Below are positions 38,505 through 58,500 of a DNA stretch of 64,000 bases, piece by piece. Source of the DNA: Escherichia coli (GTDB lineage Bacteria; Pseudomonadota; Gammaproteobacteria; Enterobacterales; Enterobacteriaceae); assembly GCF_046105845.1 (NCBI RefSeq), contig NZ_CP151004.1; one strand, written 5' to 3'. Position numbers and translations under genes: made by a program. Position 1 is the first letter of the stretch. Each line of letters begins with the position of its first letter. The notes below the pieces were generated by a model. It worked only from the letters and a program-made list of their open reading frames with translations, did not search any database and was not told the origin of the DNA.

Positions 38505-38867
38505 TTACTCGTCACTACCTTTATTCATGTTTTTTTGGTCTTCATCCGGATAATGTTTTTTTAGATATTCCAGGACGTTTTTATTGACCTTGTGTTGCGT
38601 ATACACCCACCCTTTCCAGTAATCAGGCTGGTCCAGGTAAACTTCTGGCGGAATGGTGAAATCAGAAAGCGTTAACCATTCGGCTAACAGATCGGGGTTT
38701 CGTTTCTGGATTAACTGCAACAGCATAATCAGTGACATAGCTGAGGCAGGAGCCGTACTATCACCACTCAAATATTTCCACACTGTTGACCGGTTCGAAC
38801 GAAAAAGGATCGGTAGCAATGCCCGGTCCAGATTCATTTCATTAAAAATCTTCTCAAATTCATTCAT
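38505..38867 (-). CDS. Hypothetical 120-aa protein, possible HTH-type regulator
   Basis: ORF with SD-like aggaaa 8 nt upstream of ATG at 38867; segment LLPILFRSNRSTVWKYLSGD resembles a helix-turn-helix. Divergent from the autotransporter gene across a 366-bp AT-rich region. I do not recognise the family. Confidence 0.45.
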   Translation of the reverse strand: MNEFEKIFNEMNLDRALLPILFRSNRSTVWKYLSGDSTAPASAMSLIMLLQLIQKRNPDLLAEWLTLSDFTIPPEVYLDQPDYWKGWVYTQHKVNKNVLEYLKKHYPDEDQKNMNKGSDE

Positions 38868-39233
38868 TTAAATTTTCCTGCCTGGCGTAAACCTCTTAAA
38901 AATTGAGATTTATCAAAGAAACGCATTTTAGCACACATCAGGAACCGCTTCACGTTTAGTTCAGAAACAGAATTTATTTCGCTTATCAAAACAAGTCTTT
39001 ACTCTTTTTTACATTGAAAGAGCACAAAATGATTTTCTATTTTATTTATATAAGAAACATTTTTTGTTTCTTATTGGTGGTGTTTACGCTTACACCAGAC
39101 AAAAATGCGCTTTACATCACACAAATGGCGGCGTAGATTTCGATCAAATTGCAACGCAGATTAATTCTTATAACAACGTTTTACGTTGCTTATAGAAACA
39201 AATATGTGACTTACTTTGAAAGAGAAAAAATGC

Positions 39234-42125
39234 ATGAAAACTGTAAAGCTGTCTTTACTGGCTGTCGTTGTTGCTACCGCGGTAAGTCCATCTGCGTTTG
39301 CGGGTGATACTGTTGAGGCGGCAACGACAGAATTAACGGCAATCCAGCCAGGAATGTCGCAATCGGAAATTGATCAGAAAATTGGTCGATTTTTAGAAAG
39401 GACAGGGAATAGTGCAGCCGCACAAAATTATCTGATTGCGCATGATTACCGGACAACGACACCTCAGGAAAATACAGCTGCCTCTCCCGTACAGCCCGCC
39501 AATACGCTGAACCCGATAACCAATCAAGCGCAGACCGACCGCGACAACGGGCAGGATACCGCCATTCAGGACGCACAACATGCCGCCAACTGGGCTTCAC
39601 TGAAAGCTGATGACGCGCAGCACGCCATCACGGTGGCGCAGACGGATATTGATGCCAATAAAGCCGCCATCGCCGACACCCGTAATGATGTCTCCGCAGT
39701 GCAGTCAGACGTCACCAACATAAAAGGCGATGTCGCACATGCCCAGTCAACGGCTGACCATGCCAACGCTAACGCCAACACCGCTCTGATGAACGGCGTC
39801 AAACTTTCCGGTGCTGTGGCAGAAAACAAAAACAATATCGAACAGAACCGCAGCGATATTGCTGACCAGCAGAAACTGTTGGCATCAAACGAGCAAAAAC
39901 AGATCGTCCGCGACAACGGGCAGGATACCGCCATTCAGGACGCGCAACATGCCGCCAACTGGGCTTCACTGAAAGCTGATGACGCGCAGCACGCCATCAC
40001 GGTGGCGCAGACGGATATTGATGCCAATAAAGCCGCCATCGCCGACACCCGTAATGATGTCTCCGCAGTGCAGTCAGACGTCACCAACATAAAAGGCGAT
40101 GTCGCACATGCCCAGTCAACGGCTGACCATGCCAACGCTAACGCCAACACCGCTCTGATGAACGGCGTCAAACTTTCCGGTGCTGTGGCAGAAAACAAAA
40201 ACAATATCGAACAGAACCGCAGCGATATTGCTGACCAGCAGAAACTGTTGGCATCAAACGAGCAAAAACAGATCGTCCGCGACAACGGGCAGGATACCGC
40301 CATTCAGGACGCGCAACATGCCGCCAACTGGGCTTCAATGAAAGCTGATGACGCGCAGCACGCCATTATGGTGGCGCAGACGGATATTGATGCCAATAAA
40401 GCCGCCATCGCCGACACCCGTAATGATGTCTCCGCAGTGCAGTCAGACGTCACCAACATAAAAGGCGATGTCGCACATGCCCAGTCAACGGCTGACCATG
40501 CCAACGCTAACGCCAACACCGCTCTGATGAACGGCGTCAAACTTTCCGGTGCTGTGACAGAAAACAAAAACAACATCGAACAGAACCGCAGCGATATTGC
40601 CGACCAGCAGAAACTGTTGGCATCAAACGAGCAAAAACAGATCGTCCGCGACAACGGGCAGGATACCGCCATTCAGGACGCACAACATGCCGCCAACTGG
40701 GCTTCAATGAAAGCTGATGACGCGCAGCACGCCATTATGGTGGCGCAGACGGATATTGATGCCAATAAAGCCGCCATCGCCGACACCCGTAATGATGTCT
40801 CCGCAGTGCAGTCAGACGTCACCAACATAAAAGGCGATGTCGCACATGCCCAGTCAACGGCTGACCATGCCAACGCTAACGCCAACACCGCTCTGATGAA
40901 CGGCGTCAAACTTTCCGGTGCTGTGACAGAAAACAAAAACAACATCGAACAGAACCGCAGCGATATTGCCGACCAGCAGAAACTGTTGGCATCAAACGAG
41001 CAAAAACAGATCGTCCGCGACAACGGGCAGGATACCGCCATTCAGGACGCACAACATGCCGCCAACTGGGCTTCAATGAAAGCTGATGACGCGCAGCACG
41101 CCATTATGGTGGCGCAGACGGATATTGATGCCAATAAAGCCGCCATCGCCGACACCCGTAATGATGTCTCCGCAGTGCAGTCAGACGTCACCAACATAAA
41201 AGGCGATGTCGCACATGCCCAGTCAACGGCTGACCATGCCAACGCTAACGCCAACACCGCTCTGATGAACGGCGTCAAACTTTCCGGTGCTGTGACAGAA
41301 AACAAAAATAATATCGAACAGAACCGCAGCGATATTGCTGACCAACAGCAACAACTCGACGAAACCCGGAAAACCGTTGCCGCCACCGGTGATGTACAGA
41401 CTGCCGCCCGATATCAGAGCATGATTGACGCCAGACAGACTGCTGCTGCCAATGCGCAACAGGAACAAGCGGACACCCAGCAGCAACAAATGGACGATCA
41501 GCAGAAACAAATCGACGCGACGCAAAAAACGGTTTCCGCACTTGGCGATGCCCAGACCAACGCACATTATCAAGAGATGGTTAACGCCGGACTGAGAGCA
41601 CAAAATGATGCGAATGCGCGTACTGCAGCAGAACAAAAACAAAAAATAGATACTCTGGCGACTAACCAGGCAACGCAACAGCATATCGATAGTGTGCAGT
41701 ACGGGGAACAAATTCAGCGTCTGGCGCAAGACTCAACACAAACGCATGAACAAATTGACAGCCTGACACAAGACGTAACCCAAACGCATCAGCAGTTAAG
41801 CAACACGCAAAAACGAGTAGCGGATAATAGCCAGCAGATTACTACGCTCAATAACCATTTCAGTTCGCTGAAAAACGAAGTTGAGGACAACCGTAAAGAA
41901 GCCAATGCGGGAACTGCATCAGCCATCGCTATCGCCTCACAACCACAGGTGAAAGCCGGTGACTTTATGATGATGTCAGCGGGAGCGGGAACCTTCAACG
42001 GTGAATCTGCGGTGTCTGTCGGAACATCTTTTAATGCCGGAACGCATACCGTGATTAAAGCCGGTGTCTCTGCGGATACGCAATCTGATTTCGGCGCGGG
42101 TGTCGGCGTGGGATATTCTTTCTAA
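39234..42125 (+). CDS. Trimeric autotransporter adhesin-like protein (type Vc) with coiled-coil repeat stalk and YadA-type anchor
   Basis: ORF 39216..42125; ATG at 39234 gives 963 aa. Sec signal peptide MKTVKLSLLAVVVATAVSPSAFA; long Q/A/N/D-rich helical repeat region; C-terminus EANAGTASAIAIASQPQVKAGDFMMMSAGAGTFNGESAVSVGTSFNAGTHTVIKAGVSADTQSDFGAGVGVGYSF fits the YadA-like anchor pattern (alternating small residues, glycine-rich beta strands, terminal aromatic). No recognisable YadA head motifs. Confidence 0.75.
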   Translation: MKTVKLSLLAVVVATAVSPSAFAGDTVEAATTELTAIQPGMSQSEIDQKIGRFLERTGNSAAAQNYLIAHDYRTTTPQENTAASPVQPANTLNPITNQAQTDRDNGQDTAIQDAQHAANWASLKADDAQHAITVAQTDIDANKAAIADTRNDVSAVQSDVTNIKGDVAHAQSTADHANANANTALMNGVKLSGAVAENKNNIEQNRSDIADQQKLLASNEQKQIVRDNGQDTAIQDAQHAANWASLKADDAQHAITVAQTDIDANKAAIADTRNDVSAVQSDVTNIKGDVAHAQSTADHANANANTALMNGVKLSGAVAENKNNIEQNRSDIADQQKLLASNEQKQIVRDNGQDTAIQDAQHAANWASMKADDAQHAIMVAQTDIDANKAAIADTRNDVSAVQSDVTNIKGDVAHAQSTADHANANANTALMNGVKLSGAVTENKNNIEQNRSDIADQQKLLASNEQKQIVRDNGQDTAIQDAQHAANWASMKADDAQHAIMVAQTDIDANKAAIADTRNDVSAVQSDVTNIKGDVAHAQSTADHANANANTALMNGVKLSGAVTENKNNIEQNRSDIADQQKLLASNEQKQIVRDNGQDTAIQDAQHAANWASMKADDAQHAIMVAQTDIDANKAAIADTRNDVSAVQSDVTNIKGDVAHAQSTADHANANANTALMNGVKLSGAVTENKNNIEQNRSDIADQQQQLDETRKTVAATGDVQTAARYQSMIDARQTAAANAQQEQADTQQQQMDDQQKQIDATQKTVSALGDAQTNAHYQEMVNAGLRAQNDANARTAAEQKQKIDTLATNQATQQHIDSVQYGEQIQRLAQDSTQTHEQIDSLTQDVTQTHQQLSNTQKRVADNSQQITTLNNHFSSLKNEVEDNRKEANAGTASAIAIASQPQVKAGDFMMMSAGAGTFNGESAVSVGTSFNAGTHTVIKAGVSADTQSDFGAGVGVGYSF
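39540..41343 (+). repeat. 4.9 tandem copies of a 369-bp (123-aa) near-identical in-frame repeat within the autotransporter gene
   Basis: cgcgacaacgggcaggatacc recurs at 39540, 39909, 40278, 40647 and 41016 (exact 369-bp period). Unit begins RDNGQDTAIQDAQHAANWAS... Copies 1-2 and copies 3-5 form two subtypes (LKADD/ITVAQ/AVAEN versus MKADD/IMVAQ/AVTEN). Confidence 0.92.
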
Positions 42126-42210
42126 TATTCCAATCCTCAATATAAATAAGAGCAAGGAAGCTTGCCGGGTTTCACCTCTTCATTAATTTGTACATTATTT
42201 AAGGTTAACA

Positions 42211-42633
42211 ATGATGAATAGTTCCATTAAATCGTTTTCCCTGCTGGCGGTTATATTACTGGCTGGCTGTAGTTCACCCACTTCCCGCATCGCAGATTGC
42301 CAGGCGCAGGGCGTCAGCCATGACACCTGTTATCTCGCAGAACAACAGCGTCAGACGGCTATTTTAAGTGCATCCGAGGCGCAGGCATTTAAAAATGCAG
42401 AAGCCGCACAACATGCCCAGGCGGCAAAGAAAGCCATTTATAAAGGATTTGGCATGACCTTTAGAATGAGCAGTAAGAACTTTGCTTATCTCAATGATTC
42501 ATTATGTGCAATTGATGAAGACAATAAAGATGCCACTGTTTATCAGTCAGGTCTTTATAACGTCATTGTTTATCACCACACGGGAAAAGTCGCCTTAATG
42601 AAGGAAGGTCAGTTTGTGGGTTATTTAAAATGA
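42211..42633 (+). CDS. Putative lipoprotein (140 aa)
   Basis: Signal peptide with lipobox LLAGC, Ser at +2; 85 bp downstream of and co-directional with the autotransporter gene. Confidence 0.6.
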   Translation: MMNSSIKSFSLLAVILLAGCSSPTSRIADCQAQGVSHDTCYLAEQQRQTAILSASEAQAFKNAEAAQHAQAAKKAIYKGFGMTFRMSSKNFAYLNDSLCAIDEDNKDATVYQSGLYNVIVYHHTGKVALMKEGQFVGYLK

Positions 42634-42833
42634 AGGAGCAAAGGAAAATCCCCCTGACGCATATTATGATTATCGGTGCGTTTATTTTTGCCTTCTTGCA
42701 AGTGGTGTTATTAGCCTCCCTGGTTCACGCTGTGAATGTTAACAATGAAATCCAGGAAGGCTTATTTCAATCGGGGCGCATAATGGTAGAAAGTTTGCAG
42801 CATATTCTTTCGGTGCAAACGGGGATTAACTGA
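42630..42833 (+). CDS. Putative small single-pass membrane protein (67 aa)
   Basis: Start overlaps the lipoprotein stop (ATGA); hydrophobic segment IMIIGAFIFAFLQVVLLASLV; stop lies 3 bp from the convergent cueR stop. Confidence 0.4.
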   Translation: MKEQRKIPLTHIMIIGAFIFAFLQVVLLASLVHAVNVNNEIQEGLFQSGRIMVESLQHILSVQTGIN

Positions 42834-42836
42834 TTT

Positions 42837-43244
42837 TCACCCCGCCCGATGATGACAGCAGCCGGAGAGATTTTCGATAATCGGGCAGTCGGCGCTGTCA
42901 TCGCCAGGGCAGGCATTCGCCAGCGCCAACAGCTGGTTGCGCATGGATTGCAGTTCTTCGATATGTCGCTCGATCTCCGCCACTTTCTCCAGGGTGCGAC
43001 GTTTGACGTCGGCACTGTGACGCTGCGGATCGTTAAACAGATTCACCAGCTCGCCGCTCTCTTCCAGGTTAAAGCCCACCTGGCGTGCCTGGCGCAGTAA
43101 GGTCAGTTCGTTGAGATGCTGCTGCGTGTAAGTACGATAACCGTTTTCGCTGCGCATCGGCGGCGTCACCAGCCCCTTCTCTTCATAGAAGCGGATTGCT
43201 TTGCTGGTCAGGCCGGTAATTTTTGCTACATCGCTAATGTTCAT
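42837..43244 (-). CDS. cueR: MerR-family copper-responsive regulator
   Basis: 135-aa [32 protein letters not shown]... with C-terminal metal-binding CPGDDSADC...CCHH; recognised CueR. Confidence 0.95.
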
Positions 43245-44416
43245 CGTTCGCGCAACGCCTCCTGTGCTTTATTAAAGGGTTTCAACAGATAATCCAGCAC
43301 GCTTTTTTTGCCGGTGCGGATATCGACCGTCGCCACCATGCCGGGAAATATCGGAAACTGCTGTTTACTTTTGTTTTCCAGATGGTTGCTGAAAGTGCGA
43401 ATGTACACCCGATAGTAATAAACATCGCGCCGCACTTCATCCTGCACGGTGTCTGGTGATATCACCGCCACTTCTCCCGGCAGGCCGCCGTAGATGGAGT
43501 AATCGTAGGCGGTTATTTTCACCAGCGATTTTTGCCCCGGATGGATAAACGCCACATCGCGCGGGGAGATTTTTGCCTCGATCAGCAGTTGCTCATCCAG
43601 CGGCACGATGGTCATCAGTTTACCACCGGGGGCAATGACCCCGCCAACCGTGGTGACGTCAATGTCCTGAACAATGCCTCGCACCGGCGCGGTAAAGTTG
43701 AGCCTGGTGAGGGAGTCTTCCCGTCCACGGATCACCGAACGCTGGGTTTCCACTTCCGCATTGGCTTTCGCTAACTCTTCGCGCGCCTGAACGTAATATT
43801 GCGTGCGCACGTCGCTAAGTTTGTTTTCCAGTTCATTGGCCTGGCGTTGCAGGCGCAGCACTTCAACGCTGCTCGCCGCCCCCTGTTTTACCAGCGGCTG
43901 GGTCATCGCCAGTTCGCGGTTGACCAGGCTAATCCCCTGCGTCAGCCCGGTGGTGGCTTTGTTCAGCCCATCGCGGCGAGTGTTGTACAACGCCGTTTCC
44001 GACTCGATAAGTTCGGGGAATTTATTCAGTTCGTCAGGGAAGACCAGCGGTTTATTGCTCACTTCCGCCCGCAGCCGCGCCGAGGTTGCCAGCGCCGCGT
44101 ACAGCCGCGACATTGCTTCCTGGACGTCGGATTCCGTTTTGGTGCGGTTAAGCTGCGCCAGCGGCTGGCCCTGTTCAACAATATCGCCAACCTTGACGTC
44201 GAGATGATACAGAATTCCGCCTTCCAGCGACTGCACCACCTGTTCGCGCCCGGAGGGTTCTACCGTGCCGCTGCCGGTGGTGACTTCATCAAGCTGGAAG
44301 TACCACGCCCAGCCGAGAAAACAGAGCAGCATCACAGCGGTAACGCGTACCGCCAGCGCCGAACGCGGCAAGCGGGGTTCAGTCAGGCCACGGTTGTATT
44401 GCAGTTGTCCGTTCAT
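43241..44416 (-). CDS. Type I secretion periplasmic adaptor (HlyD family membrane fusion protein)
   Basis: 391-aa ORF with N-terminal TM anchor, long coiled-coil region and C-terminal beta domain typical of HlyD/LapC; its stop overlaps the cueR start (ATGA). Confidence 0.88.
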
Positions 44417-46575
44417 GCGGCAGACCCCTTATTCTTCTCCTGCAACACCACCCGTCGCGCCGTGGGTTCGCTCTGTTCACGCAAAATGGCCTCTTTCGCG
44501 CCATCCATCACAATCCGCCCCTGATCCATCACGATGATCCTGTCCACCAGTTGCAGCATCGCCGTGCGGTGAGTAGCGATGACCAGCGTGCGATGCCCAA
44601 TCCACTGTTTCAGTTGTTCGATTAAATACGCTTCCGCCATTTCGTCCAGCGAGGCGCTGGGTTCATCGAGCAGCACGATATTGGGTTGAGAGATGAGTAG
44701 CCGCGCCAGCAGCAGCGTTTGCCGCTGACCACCAGAGAGGCCAAATCCCCCTTCCTGAATCATGTAGTTGAGGCCGTTTTTCTGCTTCTGCACAAAGGGC
44801 AGCGCGCCACTTAGCGTTAACGCGCGTTCGATATCTTCATCGCTGGCCTCCGGCATCCCCATGGTGAGGTTTTCCCGCAGCGAACCAAAAAACAGTCGCC
44901 CGGTCTGGCTCAGCAGCCCCATGTCGCGGCGCAGATCTGCCGGATCAAGTTGCCCGATGCTGATGTTATCCAGTAGCACCTGCCCCTGCTGGGCGATACG
45001 CATTCCGGCGAGCATTTGCAGTAGCGTTGATTTACCCGCGCCGTTGCGCCCGAGAATGGCGATTTTCTCTCCGGCCTGAATGTTGAGTTTGCCAATCGCC
45101 ACATCGGCAATCTTCTCTTCTTCGTCGTAATAAAATACCGCGTTGCTGAACTGATAATTGCCGTGCAGCACCGCTTTATGCACCAGTTTGCCGTGTTCCG
45201 GCTGATCCACCGGGCGCTTCATCAGTTCATCAAGGCCATTACGCGCTACTTTCGCCTGCTGCCAGCGCGAGAGCACGCCGGATATCTGCGACAGCGGCGC
45301 GATGGTGCGCGAAGCCAGGATCGTCGTCCCGACCAGCGCGCCGGTGGTCATGTCACCGTTCATTACCATAAAGCAGCCCACCAACAGCACCACCACGTAG
45401 ACGATGGACTGCACTTCCTGGGTCCAGGTGAGCAGTAGCCCGGTGAGAAAACGTTGCTTCATACTGATGGACGAGGCCACGTCGTTGGTGTGGTTCCACT
45501 GATTCTGAAAACGCTGTTCGGCGCGCAGCAGCTTAATATCTTCAATCGACTGCACGGCTTCCACCAGCGTAGCGTTACGCACCGCCGACTCGCGCATCCC
45601 TTCGTTCGCCAGCCGCGCCAGCGGGCGTTGTACCAGCAGGCCGGGGATCACCAATAACGGCAGCGCCAGCAAAACCACCAGCACCAGCCAGCCGCCAATC
45701 ATCCACAAAATAAAGACAAACAGCAGGAAGAACGGCAGATCCGCCACTGCACCAATAGTGGTGGAGGTGATCAGCTCCCGAACCGATTCCAGTTCGCGGA
45801 TCTGCGAGATAAACGATCCGGTGGATTTCGATCGCACGTTGTTTTTAAGCCGTAGCGCATGACCAAAAACGCGATCCGAAATACGCAGATCCGCCCGCTT
45901 GCCGATCACATCCGAAAGATGTGTGCGCACCATGCGCATACAGAACTCAAACAGGATCGCCATCATCACCCCGGCGAACAGCACCCATAGCGTCGGGTAC
46001 GATTGCGCCGGAACGACGCGGTCGTAAACCTGCATCGAGAAAATCATCGCCGCAAGCGCCAGCACGTTCGCCACCAGTGACGCCAGCATAATATCGCCAT
46101 AGCGCCGCCAGTCTTTTAGCGAGAGATTCCAGAACCAGTTCGCCTGATACGGGCGAATATAGTCGTCTACCCGCGCGTCAGGAATAGCGCTGAGCGGGCG
46201 CAACAGCGCCAGTTCGACGATGTTATCTTCAATATCCGTAACGTTAAGCGTGGTTTCCAGCCCTTCGTCACCGCTGAACTGAACGCTGATATTGTCGTGA
46301 TTATCGCGGCGGGTGATCACGCCAATCTGCTGATTATCAAATACCGCGATCAGCGGCAGACGCCACGGGTTAAGCGAGTCGGCGGAGAACTCCACCAACC
46401 GTAACCCCATTCCCAACTGCCGCGCCATATCGGTGAGCAACTCTTCCCGCTTGCTGTCGCGCTCCCAGTTGACGGTTGCGCGCACGTTCTCCTGAGAAAA
46501 ATCGAGGCGGTAATAACGCGCCACGGCGATCATCGCCTCCAGCCAGGCTTCCACGGACTGGGCATTTTTTTTCAT
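44413..46575 (-). CDS. Type I secretion ABC transporter (ATPase/permease) with N-terminal C39-like extension
   Basis: 720-aa ORF: ~150-aa N-terminal extension, 6-TM region, then Walker A GRNGAGKST, signature LSGGQRQ, Walker B LLDEPSASLD; its stop overlaps the adaptor start (ATGA). Confidence 0.9.
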   Translation of the reverse strand: MKKNAQSVEAWLEAMIAVARYYRLDFSQENVRATVNWERDSKREELLTDMARQLGMGLRLVEFSADSLNPWRLPLIAVFDNQQIGVITRRDNHDNISVQFSGDEGLETTLNVTDIEDNIVELALLRPLSAIPDARVDDYIRPYQANWFWNLSLKDWRRYGDIMLASLVANVLALAAMIFSMQVYDRVVPAQSYPTLWVLFAGVMMAILFEFCMRMVRTHLSDVIGKRADLRISDRVFGHALRLKNNVRSKSTGSFISQIRELESVRELITSTTIGAVADLPFFLLFVFILWMIGGWLVLVVLLALPLLVIPGLLVQRPLARLANEGMRESAVRNATLVEAVQSIEDIKLLRAEQRFQNQWNHTNDVASSISMKQRFLTGLLLTWTQEVQSIVYVVVLLVGCFMVMNGDMTTGALVGTTILASRTIAPLSQISGVLSRWQQAKVARNGLDELMKRPVDQPEHGKLVHKAVLHGNYQFSNAVFYYDEEEKIADVAIGKLNIQAGEKIAILGRNGAGKSTLLQMLAGMRIAQQGQVLLDNISIGQLDPADLRRDMGLLSQTGRLFFGSLRENLTMGMPEASDEDIERALTLSGALPFVQKQKNGLNYMIQEGGFGLSGGQRQTLLLARLLISQPNIVLLDEPSASLDEMAEAYLIEQLKQWIGHRTLVIATHRTAMLQLVDRIIVMDQGRIVMDGAKEAILREQSEPTARRVVLQEKNKGSAA

Positions 46576-46578
46576 TAT

Positions 46579-49500
46579 CTACACCACCATCAACTGATGA
46601 TTCGCCAGCAAAGTGGCGAGGTCGGTGTGCACGCCCGTCAGCGTGACCACGTTAGTTGTCGCAAAAGTGCCGCCCGTGCCGTCGCGGTCGATCTGTACGA
46701 TGGTGTCGCTGCCGCTCTGGGTGACTTTGACAAAATCACCGATGTTTCCGGCCTGCGCATCCAGCGTTGCCACGCCGTTGACGTAGCTGGCTTTACCGTT
46801 GCCGGTGTAGCCGCTGCCCTGTAACAACTCGCGGATATCAATGCGATCGGTGTCGGCGGTGCCTTCCCATGTCCCTACCGTAAAGCCATTCACCACGTCT
46901 GAGCCGTTGCCGCCGGTCGCGTCGCTGGCGTTGAGCAGTTTATAGAGCAAGGTGTCGTGGCCGCCGTTGCCGATGTTGAGCGTGTCGTTACCGCCGCGCC
47001 CTTCCAGTTGGTTATCGCCGCTGCTGCCGGTCAGAGTGTCGTTAAAATTCGAGCCGGATATCCCTTCGATATTGGTAAATGTCGAGGTGTTAAAGCCGGT
47101 GGCCTGCGCGGCGGTGCTGCTTAAGTTCGCGGTCACGCCCACCGTCGAGAGGCGGAAATCAACCACGTCCATCCCGCCATTCGCCAGCCACGTTCCGGTG
47201 CCGGAGCTGTACACCCAACCGCCGGAGCCGTCGTAAGTGTCGGTGCCTGCGGTGGCAAAGAAGGTGTCGTTATAGCCGGTGCCGACGAACTTGCCATTGT
47301 TGCTCGCGGTGCCTGCTTCGGCGCTGAGGTCGTAAGCGTGGGTGGCATCGGTGGCCTGTAAGCCGCCCCAGCTGGTGTTGACCGTCTGGTCGATATTGCT
47401 GGCGGTGGTGCCGGTGGATTTGATCAGCACCGCGTTGTAGGTTTCTCCGGCATTCAGCCCGTAGAAGTTGACCAGCGCCGAGGTGTCGTTAACCCCCATA
47501 CCCGACTGCGGGTTGATGATTTGCGTGGCGACCAGCACTCCCGCCGAGTTGTACAGTTTTACGGTATTGCCGTAATAGACGTTAATGCCGTTAGGATCGG
47601 TGATGCGCAGGTGCAGCGAAGTGCCGTAGCTCACCGTGTTGGTGTTGCGAATAAGATAGACGCTGCCCGACTGTTTGGTCACCAGCACATCCACCGCGCC
47701 GTCCCAGTCGTAGTCCATTGCCGCCACGCCGCTGGTGGTACCGCTCTGGCTACCGCCGAGGGCCGATTGTGTCCAGTTGCTGGCATTGCTGACGTTGGTA
47801 TAAAGATACGACTGCCCGGTCTGGGCGATACGGGCGATATCCATCAGGCCGTCATGGTTCCAGTCCACCGCCAGGCTAAACTGGCTGGCGTAGGTGGTTG
47901 CCGTTGCGCCCACCGCCACCGGGCTACCCAGTACACCGTTGGTGTTGAATAACAGCGAGCCGTAGTTAGCTCTTCCCTGGCTGGCGGGCAGGAAGAGATC
48001 CATATCGCCGTCGCCATCGAAATCGGCCCAGGTCATGGAAACGCTGCTGCTCATAGCGCCACTACCCGCCCCGCTCAGGAAGGTATTGGTGGTGTTCTGC
48101 CCCCAGACAAACGTCCCATTCCCCTGGTTGATGAGCGAAGACAGTGTGTAATAGTTATTCAGGTTATAGGTGTGCTGAACCAGGTCGATCCTGCCGTCAT
48201 TATTCAGATCGACGCCAGAACCTTCGTTGAGCGAAAGATACCCCGTCACCGCCCCGCCCACCGTGGCGCTACCGCCGCTGTTCGACGTGGTGGAGGTGCC
48301 TACCAGCGTGCCTGCGTTGTTCCACAAGAAGGTGTTAGAGTCCGGCCCGCCCGCGTCGCCAATCCAGAAGTCGAGATAGCCGTCGCCCTCTTTATCAAAT
48401 GCCACAATCGAGCCGTACCACGTCAGGGTGCCGACGGTGACCTGAATAGCGCTGGAAAAGGTGCCGTCGCCGTTATTGGTAAAGCCGTTGATATAGCCTG
48501 TACCGTAGTCATCACGGGTGATAAACAGATCGCCCGTGCCGTTACGGTCGTAATCGGCGATGGAGCTGGTGGCGTAGTTGTTGCCGCTCTGATACAGCGT
48601 CAGCGCGGTCTTCGACCAGGTGAGTGGGTCAGTCGATTGCATTACCTGCTGGTTTGCCAGCACCGTCCACATCCCGTGCGAGTCGAGGCCGTAGGTCAAT
48701 CCCCAGGCGGTGGTTTTGCTGACGGTGGTCCAGGTCGGTGTGTAATCAATCGCCGCATTAACCGTCACCGTGCCGTTGCTAATATTGGCGTTATTGCCGT
48801 TACCCGCCGAACTTTTTACCTGCGCAGTAACGGTATAGGCGGTCGCGGAAACTGTCAGCGCATCGGTATCCGGCAACTGTACATACCAGGTGTTGTGCGC
48901 CGGATCGACCACTACCGCGCCGCCCGGTTCAGAGGTGTAGGTTTTGCCGTTGATCACCACTTCAACATACTGCCCACTGGCGAGTGCCGCCGTGATTACC
49001 CCGCTGATAATCGGCGTGGTATCGCGCGTGGTCTGGCTGGTAATTTGCGCCAGCGTGGTCGGAATAGAGGTATCGACCGTCAGGACAAAATCACTGGAGG
49101 CGGTGATATTCCCCGCCAGATCCACCACTCGCGCACTGTAGGTGTAGGCACCGCTCACCAGCCCGCTGTCGCTGTAGGTCCAGTTCAGTGCGCCTACCAT
49201 CGTTACCGCGCCTAACAGCAGGCCGTTACGGTAGAGGTAAACCACTTCACCGCTGGCAAGCGGGCCGGAGAGCACGCCGTTCAGCAACGGCGTAGTGTCG
49301 TCGGTGGCCTGCGAACTGCTTAATGTCCCCTGCCGCTGCCCGACGTCATCAGTGTACGACACAATGGTCGGCGTCGCGGTGGGGTTAATCGTATCGACCA
49401 CCACCGTTTTCGACACCACCGGACCGGTGTTCCCCGCCAGATCCAGCACCCGCACCTGATAAACATAGCTGCCGTCGGTCAGCGTGCGGCTGTCAGTGTA

Positions 49501-52500
49501 GGTCCACTGCGTGCCGTTGGTGGTGAGCGTGATCCAGGTCGCGCCACCATCGAGGCTAATCTGCGCCACTTCGCCACTGGCAAGCCCCGCCCCCAGTGAA
49601 CCCGTCAGCGTGAGCGTGGTATCGCTGGTGATAAAGTCAGTTGCCGAACTCCCCGTGTCGGTGCTGATACTGGCGATGGTGAGTACCTGCGCCGGGTTAA
49701 CGGTATCGATCAGCGCCGACTGGCTGCCGGTTGCGCCAACGTTGCCCGCAAGATCGACTACCCGCACCTGCCAGGTGGTGGTGCCGTTGGTGAGCGTGCG
49801 CCCGTCAACGTAACTCCAGTTAAGGCCGTCTGCGGCGACGGTCACGTTCACCCAGGTTGCGCCGTTGTCGGTACTGATTTGCGCGAACTCATTAGCGCCG
49901 AGCGCCGCGCCCAGCACGCCGCGCACGGTAAGCGAGGTGTCGCTGGTAATAAAATCGCTACTGCTGGCTCCGGTGTCATCGCTGATACCGGTAATGGTGA
50001 TACTTTTCGCCGCTTCCGGGCTGGTGGTGTCGACCACCACATTTTGCGTTGCGGTCTGCCCGACATTCCCCGCCAGATCCACCACCCGCACCGTGTAGTT
50101 CCAGGTGCCGTCGGTCAGTGTGCGACCATCGGCATAGCTCCAGCTGGTGCCGATAACGGTTAAGGTGGTCCAGGTAACACCGCCGTCGAGGCTGATTTGC
50201 GCCCGTTCATCGGCGGCAAGCGCCGCGCCGAGCGTGCCGCGCACGGTCAGCGTGGTGTCGCGGGTGACAAAATCGCTGCTGCTTAACCCGGTGTCATCGC
50301 TGATGCCCGCAATGGCGATGGTTTTGCTCGCCAGCGGCGCGGTGGTGTCCACAGTGACTATCTGGCTGGCGGTCGCGCCGATATTTCCGGCGGTGTCGAT
50401 CACCCGCACCTGATAGTTGTAGTTGCCGTCGCTCAGCGTGCGCCCGTCAAGATATGTCCAGGTTAAGCCGCTTACCGAAAGATTCTGCCAGGTGGTGCCG
50501 CCGTCGATGCTGATTTGCGCGAACTCACCGGCAGAAAGCGCCGCGCCCAGCGTGCCGCTTACCGCAAGCGTCGTGTCGCTGGTGACAAAATCGTTAGTGA
50601 TCAGGCCCGTATCGGTAGTGATCGCGCTGATGGCGATGGTTTTCACCGCGGGATCTGGCGCGATGGTGTCGATCACCACATTCTGGCTGTCGGTGGCACC
50701 GACGTTGCCCGCAGCGTCAATCACCCGCACCTGATAGAGATAGTTGCCATCGGTCAGCGTGCGGCTGTCGTTATAACGCCAGGTCGTGCCGGTAACGGTG
50801 AGCGTGGTCCAGGTTACGCCGCCGTCGATACTGATTTGTGCCGTCTCGTTACTGGCAAGCGCGGCGGTGAGCGAGCCGTTGACCACCACCGGACTGACGC
50901 TGGTGATAAAGTCGCTGGCGCTAAGCCCAGTGTCGGCTTGCAGGGAATCGATATTAATACCCATCGCCGGGACGCTGAGATCGACAGTAATGGTGTGATT
51001 GCTGCTGCCGGTGTTGCCAATGGCGTTGCTCACCGAGGCATTAATCACATAGGCATTGCCGTCCGTCAGCGCGGTGACATCGGCGCTGCCGAGGGTGTAG
51101 CTCCAGCTACCGCCGGTCTGTACCGTGGTGGTGTAGGTTTTGCCGTTTAAGGTCAGGGTCAGCGTCTGCCCGACGGGTGCGGTGGTGGTGCCGCTGATCA
51201 CCAGCGACGAGCCGTGTTCCGCCGCGTTCACCACATCATCGCCCGCAAAGGTGTTGATGGTGACGGTAGGCACATCGCCGTTCAACGTCACGCCACGGCT
51301 GGCGCTGCCGGGGTTTCCGGCCTGATCGGCGACCGACGCGCTGATGGTGTAGCTGCCGTCGCTTAATCCGGCAAACTGCTGCGCCGGAATAAACACCGAC
51401 CAGCTTCCGCCGCTGCCGACCGTTGCAGTCCAGCTCTGACCGTTAAAGGTGACGGTCACCGTCTGGCCCACTTCAGCGGTGGTGGTGCCGCTGATGGTTT
51501 GCCCAGCGAGCTGTTCGGCGTTGTTGATAATATCGTCACCCGCCACCGTGGCGATGGTGACCGTGGGCGCAACGGTATCGACGGTCAGGGCGTGCGTGGT
51601 TTGACCGGGGTTACCGGCGCGATCGTTCACGCTGGCGGTAATGGTCTGCGCGCCCTGCCCGAGTGCGGCCAGATCCGCCGCAGGCACGTTAAGCGCCCAG
51701 GTGCCATTGGCGGCCACCGTGGCAGTGTAAGTTTTGCCGCCAAAGGTGACAGTGACCGTCTGCCCCACTTCCGCGCTGGTCGAGCCGTTAAGGGTTAACG
51801 GCTGCTGTTGTTCGGCGGCGTTGAGTCGGTCGTCCGTTGAAACCGTGTTTATGCTGATAATCGGCGCGGTGAGATCCACCGCAACACTGCGCGAGGCCGT
51901 GGCGCTGTTTCCGGCGCTGTCCTGGGCGGAGGCGCTAACCGTGTAGCTGGTGCCATCCGCCAGTGCCGCGACGTCTGCCGCCGGCACGTTCACGCTCCAG
52001 CTCCCGTTGCTCTGAATGGTGGCGCTGTAGCCTTTGCCGTTAAGCAACACGGTCACTACTGTACCTGCGGCAAAGTTCGTTCCGGTGCCGATCAGGGTCA
52101 GCGCACTGCCCGCTTCGGCGGCGTTAATAATATTATCGCCGCTGATGGTGCTGACCGAGAGCGACACTGCCGCCGTGTTCACCTGCACGTTGTGCGTCTG
52201 CGTGCTGCTGTTGCCTGCGCTATCGGTGATAGTGGCGCTGATGGTCACCGTGCCGTCTGCAAGGCCGGAAATCACGCTGGCAGGCACGCCGACGCTCCAG
52301 TTGCCGCTGGCATCGGTGCTGGTGACATACTGCTGCCCGGCGATGGTCACCACCAGGCGGTCGCCCGCCACTGCGCCCGTGGCGGTGCCGCTGATAATCT
52401 GCGCCTGAGTGTGTTCGACGTTGTTAATCACATCATCGCCCGCCACGGTGTTAAAACTGATCACCGGCGCAGTGGTATCGACGGTCACGCCTTTGCTGGC

Positions 52501-55500
52501 GCTGCCAGGGTTACCCGCCAAATCGCTGACCGTGGCGGTCAGGGTGTAGCCGTTATTGGCAAGTGCGGTTAAGTCGCTGGCGGGCAGCGTTAAACTCCAG
52601 CTGCCGTCTGCCTGCACCGTGGTCTGGTAGTTAGTGCCGTTAAGCGTGACGGTCAGCGTCTGCCCCGTCTCCGCCGTGCTGGTGCCGGATACCGTCACGC
52701 CCGCCGCCGCTTCGCTGGCATTGATGATGTTATCGCTGGCAATGGTGTTGATGGTCACCGTTGGCGCGGCGCTATCGACGCTGTATTCATGCGTTGCCGT
52801 GGCGCTGTTGCCGTTGACGTTAGTCACCCGCACCTGGGCGCTGGCATCGCCGTCACGCAGGGCCGCCATATCCGCCGCCGGAACGGTGGTGCTCCAGCTA
52901 CCGTTTGCCGCCACCGTGGTGGTGTAGGTTTTACCGCCAAAAGTAATGGTAACGGTTTGCCCCGCTTCGACGCCGGACGTGCTGCCGGAGAGCGTTAGCG
53001 CCGCGCCTTTTTCGGCGGCGTTAATCACATCATCGCTGGTAATGCTGTTCATGCTGATGGCGACGGTAGTGAGATCAACAGTCAGCGGATGGGTAATGCT
53101 GGTTTGCGTTCCGGCACTGTTCGCGCCGCTAACGGTAATGTTCAGCGTTCCCGCAGGCCAGTTGCTGACATCCGCCGCCGGAACGCCGACGCTCCAGCTG
53201 CCGTTTGCCAGCACCGTGGCGGCGTAAGTTTGGTTATTAATCACCACCGTCAACGCCGTACCTGCGGCAAAACCGGAACTGCTGCCAGTAATCACCTGCG
53301 CCTGGGCGTGTTCGATAATATTCACCACATCATCGCCCGCGACGGTATCCACCCGCAGGCCGGGTAGACTGGCATCGATGGTGATATCGCGCGTGCCGCT
53401 ACCGGTGTTGCCAACGGCGTTGGTCACCAAGGCATTAACCGTTAACTCACCGTTACCCAGCGCCTGCCAGTCGGCGGCAGGTACGCTCACATTCCAACTT
53501 AAATCAGCCTGGACCGTGGCGGTGTAAGTTTTACCGCCCAGTTCAACGGTGACGGTGCTGCCCGCCGCCGCACCGGTTACCTGGCCGCTGATGGTTTGCG
53601 CACTGCCTGCTTCAGCGGCGTTGATAATATCGTCCGTCGCCACCGGATTAATGGTGACGCCCGGTAGCGCGGTATTGACCTGCACGTTATGGCTGGCGGT
53701 GCTGCTGTTACCCTGAGCATTTGTGACGCTCGCCGTCACGCTGTAGGTGGCTTCGCCCAGCGCACTGACCGCCGAGGCGGGCACGGTTACGCTCCAGTTG
53801 CCGGAGGCGTCGGTAGTGGCGCTGTAGTTTTGTCCGTTCAGCGTAACGGTGATCGCCGTACCCGCAGGCTGATCGCTGGTGCCGGAAAGCGTCAGATCAG
53901 ATCCTTTTTCCGTCGCGTTGATCACATCATCGCCCGCGATGGTGTTGATGCTAATCACTGGCGCGCTGAGGCTGACGGTCACGGTGCGGCTGGCGTCATC
54001 GCTGTTACCCGCCCGATCGCTGACGCTGGCGGTGATGGTCTGTGCGCCGCTACCCAGTGCCGTAACATCCGCCGCTGGAACGCCAACGCTCCAGTTGCCG
54101 GAGGCATCCAGGGTGGTGGTGTAGGTTTTGCCGTTGAGCACAACGCTCACCACATCGCCCGCTTCCCCGCCCGTGCTGGTGCCGGAGATCACCAGCGCCT
54201 GCGCATGTTCGGCATCGTTGATAATGTCATCGCCCGCCACAGTGTTAATGGTGAGAACCGGCGCGGTGGTGTCTACCGCCAGATTATGGCTGGCGCTGCC
54301 GGGGTTGCCCGCTTTGTCGTTGACCGTGGCGCTGACGGTGTAATTGCTTGCGCTCAGCGCGCCTAAGGCTGAAGGGGGAACGCTGACGCTCCAGCTACCG
54401 TCTGCCTGCACATTACCGCTGTAGGTTGCGCCGTTAAGGGTGACGGTGACCGTCTGCCCGGTTTCGGCGGTGCTGGTGCCGCTGATGGTGAGCGGGCTTC
54501 CCGCCTCCGTGGCGTTAAGAATATCGTCGCTGGCAATGGTGTTAATGGTGAGCGTCGGCGCGCTGGCGTCAACGCTGTACGCATGGGTCGCCGAGGCGCT
54601 GTTACCGCTCGCGCTGCTAACGCTGGCCTGCACGTTCGCCGCGCCGTCTGGCAGAGTTGCCAGATCTGCCGCCGGAACGTTCACACTCCAGCTTCCGTTG
54701 GCGGCGACGCTTGCGGTGTAGGTTTTACCGCCAAAGATGACGGTAACGGTTTGCCCGCTTTCAATCCCGCTGGTGCTGCCGGAAAGGGTCAGACCAGTGC
54801 CTTTTTCGGCGGCGTTAATTACGTCGTCGCTGGCAACGGTGTTGATGCTGATTGCCACCGCCGTTAAATCGACGGTGAACGGATGGCTGACGCTGACCGG
54901 ATTTCCGGCGCTGCTCTGGCCTGCCACGTCAACGGTTAACGCCCCCGCAGGCCATGCGCTGACGTTTGTCGCCGGAATGCCGACGCTCCAGCTCCCGTCT
55001 GCCTGTACCGTGGCGGAATAAGCCGTGCCGTTAATCGTGATCGTCAATGGCACGCCTGCATTCAGGCCGCTACTGCCGCCAGTGATCACCAGCGCCTGCC
55101 CGTGTTCAATGCTGTTGACGATATCATCGCCCGCTACCGTATCCACGCGCAGCCCTGGCAGGTTAGCGTCAATGGTGATATCCCGCGTACCGCTGCCCGT
55201 ATTGCCATTCGCGTTGGTGACCGAAGCGTTAATGGTCAAATCGCCATTGCCCAACGCCTGGAGATCGGCTGCCGGAACGCTGATACTCCAGCTTAAGTTG
55301 CCCTGTACCGTGGTGGTGTAAGTGTTGCCGCCCAGCGTGACGGTAACCGTATCGCCAGCGGCGGCACGAGTGACCACCCCGCTGATGGTTTGATCGGCCC
55401 CGGCTTCGGCGGCGTTGATAATATCATCGCCCGCCACGGTGTTGATGGTAACGCCCGGCAGGCCGCTATCGATCAGTAAATTCGCCTGGCTGCTGGCGGT

Positions 55501-58500
55501 GTTACCCGCCGCACTGGTGGCACTGGCGCTGACGGTATAGTTGGCCTGACCTAGAGCCGCCAGATCGCTCACCGGCACGGTTAAGGTCCAGTTGCCCGCC
55601 GCGTCGGTGGTGGCGCTGTAGTTATGACCGTTGAGCGTGACGGTGACCTGCGCGCCCGTCGCCAGCCCCGTACTGCTACCGCTAATGGTCAACGGCTGGC
55701 CTTTTTCATCGGCGTTCAGGACGTTATCGCCGCTGATGGCGTTAAAGGTAATTGACGGCAGGCCAGTATTGACCGTCACCTGATGCGTGGCGCTGCCGCT
55801 GTTTCCGGCGGCATCGGTGACGCTGGCGTTAATGGTCACCGTGCCGTTCGCCAGCGCCGAGACGACGCTTGCCGGAACGCCGACGCTCCAGTTACCGCTG
55901 GCATCCAGCACGGTGGTGAAGGTATTTGTGCCGATAGTCACCGTCACGGTGCTACCGGTTGCCGCACCCGTGGCGGAGCCGCTGATAATCTGCGCCTGGG
56001 CGTGTTCCGTCGCGTTGATCACATCATCGCCTGCCACCGTGTTGATGGTGACGACCGGAACGGAAGTATCCACCGTCAGGTTGTGATTAACCGAGGCCGG
56101 GTTTCCGGCTTTGTCGCTCACCGCCGCATTCACGGTGTAGTTGCTGGCGGTCAGGGCGCTTAAGTCGGCTGGCGGTACGCTGACGCTCCAGCTACCGTCC
56201 GTTTGAACCGTGCCAGTATAGTTTTCGCCATTGAGGGTGACGGTCACTGTCTGCCCCGCTTCCGCCGTGCTGCTGCCAGTGATAGTCAGCGCAGCACCCG
56301 CTTCGGCGGCGTTAAGAATGTCGTCGCCCGCAATGGTGTTAATGGTCACCGTTGGCGCGGTAGCATCGACGCTGTAAGCGTGGGTAGTGGTGGCGCTGTT
56401 GCCGTTAACATTGCTGACGTTGGCCTGCGCGCTGGCATCGCCATCACGCAGGGCCGCCATATCTGCCGCCGGAACCGAGGTGCTCCAGGAACCATTCGCC
56501 GCGACGCTTGCAGTGTAGGTTTTGCCGCCAAAGGTGACGGTGACCGTTTGCCCGGCCTCCACACCAGAAGTGCTGCCAGAGAGCGTTAACGCCGCGCCTT
56601 TTTCGGCAGCGTTAATCACGTCATCGGCAGTAATGGCGTTGATGCTGACCGCCACCGCAGTGAGATCGACAGTCACCGGATGCGTAACGCTGACCGGATT
56701 TCCGGCTGTGGTGCTACCGCTCGCCGTAATCGTGACCGTCCCCGCAGGCCAGGCGCTGACATCTGCCGCCGGAACGCCGACGCTCCATGAGCCATCCGCC
56801 AGTACCGCCGCAACATAGGTTTGCCCGTTAATGGTCAGCGTGACGTTACTGCCCGTCGCCAGACCGGAACTGCTGCCGGTAATCATCAGCGCCTGTCCGT
56901 GCTCGATAATATTGACCACATCATCGCCAGCGACAGTATCGACCCGCAGACCGGGCAGATTCGCGTCGATGGTGATTTCACGCGTGCCGTTACCGGTATT
57001 ACCTACGCTGTTCGTTACCGAAGCCGAAATGGTCAGCTCGCCGTTGCCCAGCGCCTGTAAAGCGGCTGCCGGAACATTAATACTCCAGCTTAAATTCGCC
57101 TGCACCGTGGCAGTGTAAGTCGCCCCGCCGAGCGTGACGGTTACCGTGTCGCCCGCTGCCGCGCCCGTCACTTGCCCGCTGATGCTCTGGCCCGCGCCCG
57201 CTTCGGCAGCGTTAATAATATCGTCGCTCGCGACAACGTTAATGGTGACGCCCGGCAGCGCGGTATTAACCTGCACGTTATGGCTGGCGGAACCGCTGTT
57301 GCCATCAGAGTCAGTAGCGGCGGCGGTCACCGTGTAAGTGGCTTCACCGAGGGCGCTCACCCGTGACGCCGGAACGGTCACGCTCCAGTTACCGGATGCA
57401 TCGGCAGTGGTGGTGTAATTTTGCCCGTTGAGCGTAACGGTTATCTGCGTGCCCGCAGGCTGGTCGCTGGTGCCGGAAATCGCCAGATCCGCGCCTTTCT
57501 CCGTGGCGTTGATGATGTCATCGACGGCAATGGTGTTAATGCTAAGTACCGGAGCGCCGAGCGCCACGCTGACACTGTGCGAGGCCGTGCCGCTGTTGCC
57601 TGCGGAGTCGGTGACCGTGGCGGTAATGGTCACATCCCCCTGCGCCAGTGCGGAAATCACGCTGGCAGGCACACCGATGCTCCAGTTGCCGTTGGCGTCC
57701 AGCACGGTGGTATAGGTAGTCGTGCCAATGGTCACGGAAACCGTGTTACCGGTCGTCGCGCCCGTTGCCGAGCCGCTGATAATCTGCGCCTGAGCATGTT
57801 CCGTGGCGTTGATGATGTCATCGCCCGCCACCGTGTTAATGGTGACAACCGGAGCGGCAAGGTCCACCGTCAGATTATGTGTTGCTGAAGCCGGATTTCC
57901 GGCTTTGTCGCTGACCGCCGCGCTCACCGTATAGGGACTGACAGTGAGGTTGGCTAAATCGCCAGTTGGTACGCTGACGCTCCAGTTCCCGTCTGCCTGC
58001 ACGTTGCCGCTGTAATTGACGCCGTTTAGCGTCACAGTCACCGTCTGCCCGGCTTCCGCCGTGGTGGTGCCGCTGATGGTCAGCGCCGATCCCGCTTCGG
58101 CGGCGTTAAGAATATCGTCGCTGGCGATGGTGTTGATGGTAACGGATGGCGCGGTGGCATCGACGCTGTAAGCATGCGTTGCCTGGGCGCTGTTACCTGC
58201 GACGTTGCTGACGCTGGCCTGGACGTTTGCTGCGCCGTCAGGCAAGGTTGCGAGATCGGCGACTGGGATCGTTAGCCCCCAGGTGCCGCCCGCGGCAACC
58301 GTGGTGGTGTAGCTTTTACCACCGAAGATAACGGTGATGGTCTGCCCCGCTTCCACGCCGGAGGTGGTGCCGGAAAGCTGCAAATCGCTGCCTTTTTCGG
58401 CGGCATTAATTACATCGTCAGTGGAAAGGGTGTTGATGGTGATCGCCACAGTAGCGAGATCGACCGTGACCGGATGAGTAATGCTGGTTGTGGTTCCGGC

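Follow-up and report, generated by a model that had tools for sequence, protein, structure and literature searches.

A YadA-family gene with an internal tandem array

We analyzed a 64,000-nucleotide stretch of an Escherichia coli genome (the window; RefSeq assembly GCF_046105845.1, contig NZ_CP151004.1), which includes a YadA-family gene that contains a tandem array of 369-bp units (Table 1). The gene sits between ybbJ and cueR and is adjoined by a type I secretion system and the giant adhesin gene siiEA. The corresponding position in O157:H7 is O-island 29 (z0640, z0639, and z0638), where the genes encode a hypothetical protein of 120 residues, a "YadA family autotransporter adhesin" of 338 residues, and a lipoprotein of 140 residues. 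The array lies in frame within an open reading frame (ORF) at 39216-42125, whose likely start is the ATG at 39234 (MKTV...), which gives a protein of 963 residues.

Tandem Repeats Finder (TRF) reports the array with a period of 369, 4.9 copies, 98% matches, 0% indels, and a score of 3511, and a repeat finder places five units head-to-tail at a spacing of exactly 369 bp. In unit 5, the repeat is kept for about 338-346 nt and then gives way to unique sequence. The original prediction for this DNA had put five copies at 39540-41343, which falls inside the TRF array (39531-41352), and its place, period, and copy number were all correct. An in-register comparison over 369 positions gives 3 differences between units 1 and 2, two of which fall at the array's left edge, 1 between units 3 and 4, and 6-9 between the first pair and the second. 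The two subtypes that had been proposed (copies 1-2 versus copies 3-5) also held up when we aligned the five units, as four columns (69, 98, 100, and 288) separate them. At columns 305 and 332, copy 5 sides with copies 1-2, and column 44 (A, G, G, A, and A across copies 1-5) does not follow the subtypes, which makes the array slightly mosaic. At an offset of 369, the longest tract of exact identity is 626 bp, which is far beyond chance, and the in-register exact tracts between units are 187-324 bp.

The sole significant Pfam domain in the protein is YadA_anchor (PF03895, E = 8e-11), which covers the last 60 residues. The C-terminus ends in GVGVGYSF. With phmmer, the anchor matches solved structures (AtaA at 1.4e-6, Hia at 5.6e-6, and also YadA). 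In an alignment-based AlphaFold2 (AF2) model of the 1-copy allele, four C-terminal strands are predicted at residues 420-469, and Foldseek matches the anchor to those of YadA (2lme), Hia (2gr7/3emo), and AtaA (9vnj) with a probability of 1.0 and template modeling (TM) scores of 0.70-0.84 (normalized to target length). Besides this YadA-like anchor, the protein has a Sec signal peptide (MKTVKLSLLAVVVATAVSPSAFA, called by inspecting the sequence only) and a coiled-coil passenger, which are the sequence-level features of a trimeric autotransporter (type Vc). In the trimers of this class, the four strands from each chain combine into a 12-strand barrel.

Residues 1-24 of the 1-copy allele are modeled as unstructured, with low confidence. 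After the signal peptide, the N-terminal region runs for about 80 residues. It begins with the tip, with helices at residues 26-35, 43-57, and 61-69 (predicted local distance difference test, pLDDT, of 85-90), and by a linker that is disordered at residues 76-96. The N-terminal tip region had no family match in Pfam or NCBIfam, and searches of the passenger against these databases gave coiled-coil noise alone (for example, SMC, Rad50, Filament, and Alanine_zipper). Between the array and the anchor lies a non-repeated stretch of about 200 residues that is rich in Gln, Thr, and Ala. It is modeled as helices at residues 229-277 and 281-409 of the 1-copy allele, TRF finds short degenerate repeats in it (41460-41517 and 41706-41789), and from 41508 onward it aligns at 94% to the O157:H7 locus (L002).

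The repeat unit itself has the pattern of a coiled coil. The hydrophobic residues of the five units recur with a sharp period of 3.51 residues. If the unit is written in rows of seven, then one column is I/A/V/L nearly throughout and the column three residues on is A/V/I/L/N, with Asn four times; in other words, heptad positions a and d are filled from one end of the unit to the other, and four of the d residues are N. Such core Asn residues at d are typical of the stalks of trimeric autotransporters. As 123 = 17 x 7 + 4, there is one four-residue stutter per unit, at the QIVRDNGQ junction. The alignment-based model shows the unit as a single unbroken helix (residues 98-225 of the 1-copy allele). 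Three units modeled from a single sequence form helices at 6-124, 133-248, and 256-368 (113-119 residues each), with low-confidence breaks exactly at the QIVRDNGQ junction, where the equivalent motif is helical in the alignment-based model. Thus, the reading of the array as a stalk, which was part of the original prediction, fits the YadA anchor, the 3.5-residue hydrophobic period, and the all-helical prediction. At 0.148 nm per residue, and assuming a straight helix, each unit contributes about 18 nm and five units about 91 nm; on the same assumption, five units would bring the helical part to about 120 nm, as compared to about 30 nm in the O157 allele without repeats. The unit does not appear to be a duplicate of the adjacent stalk: a BLASTP comparison of one unit with the repeat-free O157 allele found nothing significant (best E = 2.2).

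We also considered genes on the other strand. The minus strand at 39566-41386 has one 122-codon ORF from ATG to stop per unit, but these are broken in strains ETEC6335 and EC1515. Over 24 distinct units, variable sites fall at codon positions 1, 2, and 3 in the ratio 10/16/25, and none of the units has a stop in the sense frame. The bias towards third positions and the lack of sense stops fit coding on the plus strand, so the minus-strand ORFs are most likely spurious. A scan for promoters and terminators gave only background levels.

Table 1. Features of the repeat-containing gene and its immediate neighbors (window coordinates unless a locus is given).
Feature	Position	Strand	Basis
Gene for a 963-residue YadA-family protein, probable trimeric autotransporter; allele of z0639/"gmrA" (O-island 29)	39234..42125	+	open frame, PF03895, primer mapping, annotated neighbors
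Predicted Sec-type signal peptide MKTVKLSLLAVVVATAVSPSAFA, cleavage expected before GDT	39234..39302	+	basic N-terminus, hydrophobic core, A-F-A motif
N-terminal passenger tip: predicted small three-helix domain, then Pro/Thr-rich linker	39303..39530	+	AF2 model of 1-copy allele
Tandem array, 4.9 x 369 bp (123 codons)	39531..41352	+	TRF, unit comparison, one-unit BLAST against the window, 3.51-residue period, helical models
Array unit 1	39531-39899	+	
Array unit 2	39900-40268	+	
Array unit 3	40269-40637	+	
Array unit 4	40638-41006	+	
Array unit 5 (partial)	41007-41352	+	
Non-repeated membrane-proximal coiled-coil stalk, common to the repeat-free O157 allele; degenerate 21- and 42-bp repeats	41353..41942	+	alignment, TRF, model
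YadA-type membrane anchor, four predicted beta strands per chain	41943..42122	+	PF03895, phmmer, AF2 model, Foldseek
O157:H7 PA20 gmrA/z0639, same gene as window 39234-42125	L002:2835-3851		primer mapping
120-residue ORF, divergent, z0640 homolog	38505..38867	-	z0640 deletion primer maps to 38868-38905
140-residue lipoprotein, z0638 homolog	42211..42633	+	z0638 primers map to 42172-42210 and 42634-42671
67-residue membrane ORF, overlaps the end of the z0638 homolog	42630-42833	+	

Repeat number, assembly, and annotation across E. coli genomes

A query with a single unit found matches in 350 of 5,426 complete E. coli genomes (605 copies, with 1-4 copies per genome and a median of 2). In an evenly spaced sample of 60 of these 350 genomes, about 38% had one copy, 52% had two, 7% had three, and 3% had four. 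A query with the whole gene matched 1,414 genomes, most of which have a divergent repeat-free allele (about 1,050 further genomes, including O157:H7). We read eleven of the repeat loci from complete genomes in full (L001, L003-L011, and L013), and in all eleven, with alleles of one to four copies, the frame is open from signal peptide to anchor. There is one unit in MLI121 and D8, two in CFSAN061770, ETEC6335, and EC1515, three in 042, and four in WP4-S18-ESBL-07, VCSW5, and AST215. (In STN0717-11 and N3, the first unit has an in-frame deletion of 42 bp, or 14 codons and two heptads, at L006 and L009:2674-3000; here the stalk varies in length in another way.)

The closest complete genome that we found, AST215, is 99.3% identical over 12.5 kb of the left flank and 99.8-99.9% identical in the DNA beside the gene. 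If the window's units are numbered w1, w2, w3, w4, and w5, then the four units of AST215 are w1, w1, w2, and another type, x. Thus, both the number and the composition of the units changed between close relatives. The original prediction held that repeat number probably varies between strains and named identical copy number in all related genomes as evidence to the contrary. Instead, copy number elsewhere ranges from zero to four, with intact alleles of one, two, three, and four units and the repeat-free allele of O157:H7. The length polymorphism is real, though of an ordinary sort; the observation is firm, and its central prediction has been borne out.

To compare arrays, we computed a distance matrix for 27 units over 338 nt. 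Window units 1, 2, 4, and 5 are each identical over this length to a unit in another genome; for example, unit 4 is identical to unit 3 of WP4-S18-ESBL-07 and unit 5 is identical to unit 2 of VCSW5. Within one array, units can differ by 15-20 positions (042 and ETEC6335), or up to about 6%, and overall the 123-residue units are 94-100% identical. As the same unit types occur in several strains while units within an array can be divergent, the array is old and reshuffled, with only some of the steps being recent. A "very recent duplication," as was originally proposed, is therefore apt for units 1/2 and 3/4 and not for the array itself.

Five units were seen in none of the 5,426 complete genomes, where the maximum was four. 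A word-indexed protein search, in which 18 proteins were scored, sets no bound on the maximum copy number. It included a 962-residue metagenome protein (P0001, L012:3001-5889) whose total array length is similar to the window's but whose order is rearranged: one unit is followed by part of the C-terminal stalk, a hybrid unit, and further units. P0001 is either a real recombinant or a mis-assembly of the metagenome.

Could the five copies be an error of assembly, so that the units were mis-joined or miscounted and the real array is shorter or longer? The 626-bp exact tract exceeds what short reads can span, which implies that five is a minimum if the window's assembly is from short reads. Furthermore, no complete genome has more than four copies, and one draft assembly breaks inside the array (GCA_046520585.1, L015): its 62-kb contig JBKGOR010000026.1 ends 293 codons into the gene. 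(Another potential example of such a break, protein P0022, was set aside because it is from a low-coverage, frameshifted metagenome contig and is uninformative.) On the other hand, complete genomes have the same 369-bp period with open frames at one to four copies, the units of the window can be told apart by substitutions that form an ordered pattern while the frame is intact, and, as described above, four of the five match a unit elsewhere exactly over 338 nt. So, we consider an artefact unlikely. The related suggestion that short-read assemblies under-call the array is supported in part, by the draft contig that breaks in it; we found no collapsed copy number.

The array also affects annotation. 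In every genome with two, three, or four copies for which we read the annotation, the RefSeq coding sequence (CDS) includes only the last 340-349 residues, as a "YadA-like family protein." At these loci (L001:12317-14488, L003:2817-5357, L004-L009, and L013), the repeat region is unannotated and the frame is open from the signal peptide. Of the one-copy genomes, MLI121 has a longer RefSeq CDS and D8 a truncated one.

A probable length-variable stalk and the gmrA assignment

The most straightforward explanation for these data, and one that we consider likely to be correct, is that the gene encodes a trimeric autotransporter and that the array is a length-variable stalk module of a type Vc fibre in the outer membrane. 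Each unit would lengthen the coiled coil between the N-terminal tip and the conserved membrane-proximal stalk and barrel by about 18 nm, so that the number of units would move the tip domain farther from or closer to the outer membrane. The reach of the tip past the capsule, the O antigen, or the neighboring SiiEA fibre could change as a result; Cha and BadA, described below, are precedents for such an effect.

How might the number of units change? The exact tracts of 187-626 bp would allow misaligned homologous recombination (which is RecA-dependent) or replication slippage, and misalignment could add, remove, convert, or reshuffle whole units. The instability of repeats in E. coli is the basis for this proposal. 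Because the unit's length is a multiple of three, the length of the fibre would change and the reading frame never would. The repeat, its frame, the architecture of the protein, the heptad pattern, and the polymorphism of zero to five copies with intact frames come directly from our data; we infer trimerization, surface display, the recombination mechanism, the length per unit, and any effects on adhesion, aggregation, or shielding. We also considered a contingency locus that switches on and off by phase variation, and rejected it: 369 is 3 x 123, the alleles with one to five units are all in frame, and the array is internal to the gene. So, we infer that the outcome is variation in length and not on/off switching.

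Several observations weigh against this interpretation. First, O157:H7 adhered to HeLa and Caco-2 cells as before when the whole island was deleted, and the phenotype that was published is reduced motility (PMC5826968). That result concerns the repeat-free allele, and for this allele at least, an adhesin function is therefore only putative. Second, apart from the anchor, no Pfam motif for an autotransporter head, neck, or stalk was recognized, and it is usually a head domain that confers adhesion in this class. Third, both structure models are of monomers with low predicted TM scores (pTM of 0.28 and 0.24), and the breaks at the junctions in one of them raise the possibility of a segmented stalk in place of a single rigid rod. 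Finally, strains with equal BLAST scores have equal copy number (for example, three in the 042-like set), so copy number may change slowly on the time scale of epidemiology or outbreaks.

A more fundamental objection is that z0639 has been described as GmrA, a transcription activator that binds the fliA promoter (PMC5826968). If so, the product would be cytoplasmic, and the array would extend a promoter-binding regulator instead of a surface fibre. The evidence for this includes a predicted DNA-binding domain, an electrophoretic mobility shift assay (EMSA) with N-terminally His-tagged protein, chromatin immunoprecipitation with quantitative PCR (ChIP-qPCR) at fliA, and a reduction of motility and flagellation upon deletion of gmrA that was complemented (PMC5826968). 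The claim has been taken up by later reviews, up to 2024. Nor is this a confusion of genes: when we placed the lambda-Red primers of PMC5826968 on the O157 locus, the gmrA pair bracketed exactly the 338-residue YadA-family CDS and the primers for z0638 and z0640 bracketed its neighbors.

Nevertheless, we think it very unlikely that GmrA is a cytoplasmic activator, because the product of this CDS starts with a Sec signal peptide and ends in a YadA barrel anchor (PF03895 at 2.6e-11 in the O157 protein) that matches solved anchors in both sequence and fold. A signal peptide and an outer-membrane anchor would argue against a cytoplasmic location. Also, the O157 protein is strongly acidic (pI 4.7, with a net charge of about −15), and it had no significant match to a DNA-binding family in Pfam or NCBIfam. 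The match to TMF_DNA_bd is at E = 0.16 and the matches to SMC/Rad50 score 20-46 bits, as compared to curated cut-offs of 567-1087; these look like the cross-hits that are typical of coiled coils. As for the experiments, an N-terminal His tag would presumably mask the signal peptide and hold the protein in the cytoplasm, and loss of an envelope protein can be expected to alter motility indirectly. So, the motility phenotype of gmrA may be real but indirect. One speculative scenario, to which we give only slight credence, is that a surface fibre feeds back via the envelope on flagellar expression. In this scenario, the length of the stalk, at zero to five units (about 30-120 nm), would be matched to each lineage's surface layers or to the adjoining SiiEA adhesin, and the array would serve as a dial for length that links attachment with the choice of whether to swim.

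The least likely alternative is antigenic variation, in which exposed epitopes would be shuffled for immune evasion rather than reach being tuned: codons with residue changes are as common among the units as codons with silent changes only (25 versus 21), the arrays are mosaics of unit types that are common to several strains, and the same idea was proposed for BadA (PMC8859334), but with units that are 94-100% identical the diversity of epitopes is small, and a change in copy number leaves the epitopes as they are.

Bacteria are known to use stalks of variable length to raise the tip of a surface fibre or to conceal it. If the array is such a stalk, then it would add a clean example from E. 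coli, with a pure coiled-coil unit that is unusually long, at 123 residues, and with alleles that form a natural series from zero to five copies. This series is suitable for testing the length of the fibre against adhesion, aggregation, and shielding by capsule or O antigen. Correcting the assignment of GmrA, which is entrenched as a label for the repeat-free allele, would change how O-island 29 is read. At a practical level, RefSeq misses the repeat region of the multi-copy alleles and a draft assembly breaks in the array.

Related systems and neighboring genes

The closest known systems are Cha and BadA. In Cha, which is from a Haemophilus cryptic genospecies, the repeats are short (about 28 residues) and the head is recognizable; Sheets and St Geme in 2011 and McCann in 2014 reportedly worked on this protein. 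The E. coli protein differs in that its unit is 123 residues of pure coiled coil and its tip is a three-helix domain of about 45 residues. According to a review (PMC9704523), Cha is likewise a trimeric autotransporter with in-frame tandem peptide repeats whose number depends on the isolate, and a change in that number alters head exposure, adhesion, and aggregation. BadA of Bartonella henselae is also encoded by a repetitive trimeric autotransporter gene in which the number and order of domains depend on the isolate: its domain arrays are reshuffled between isolates, recombination within the array was proposed, the length of the fibre follows the length of the gene, and long reads are needed to resolve it (PMC8859334). 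However, BadA has about 3,000 residues, is built from neck and stalk domain modules with a YadA-like head, and is flanked by pseudogenes (PMC8859334), whereas the E. coli gene has zero to five copies of one simple coiled-coil unit and no pseudogene donors nearby.

Periscope proteins have near-identical tandem repeats of over 50 residues whose copy number varies between strains, a rod-like stalk with a functional domain at its distal end, and trouble with short-read assembly (PMC9704523). The E. coli array is similar in its repeats, with 123-residue units that are 94-100% identical and present in zero to five copies. Yet the periscope class consists of monomeric, single-chain rods of individually folding domains, and trimeric autotransporters are explicitly excluded (PMC9704523). 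In contrast, the unit described here is a single amphipathic helix from a trimer-forming family, and it folds only as part of a coiled coil that is presumably trimeric.

YadA, Hia, and AtaA share with the E. coli protein a C-terminal four-strand anchor that is preceded by a coiled coil and that matches in sequence and fold, but they have beta-rich heads and neck connectors, none of which were detected in the E. coli protein. The z0639/GmrA protein of O157:H7 is homologous to the window's protein in its signal peptide, N-terminal domain, membrane-proximal stalk, and anchor; it differs in having 338 residues and none of the 123-residue units. Searches of the accessible literature for an autotransporter at cueR/ybbJ and for OI-29 found no earlier description of the repeat polymorphism or of z0639 as an autotransporter, and the supplements of the 042 genome paper do not name the autotransporter gene.

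Among the flanking genes, the z0638 homolog has a lipobox (LLAGC) and is annotated as "lipoprotein" in O157; it has no Pfam match. It could be an accessory lipoprotein of the autotransporter. The single Pfam match of the z0640 homolog is weak (MqsA_antitoxin, HTH-like, E = 0.12). In ETEC6335 (L007) and EC1515 (L008), the island is not adjoined by cueR or the type I secretion genes, and a different hypothetical gene lies downstream. In VCSW5 (L004:1-965), a recombinase-family gene lies upstream of the island, and the N-terminal end of qmcA is truncated.

The siiEA adhesin ORF is on the minus strand at 46579-64000 and is open over all 17.4 kb to the edge of the window (at least 5,805 codons). 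The genes of the associated type I secretion system are at 43241-46575. In strain 042, siiEA is annotated as frameshifted, and the 042 genome paper describes it as frameshifted in both 042 and O157. The siiEA ORF of the window also contains a diverged repeat of 318 bp, at 49852-50842.

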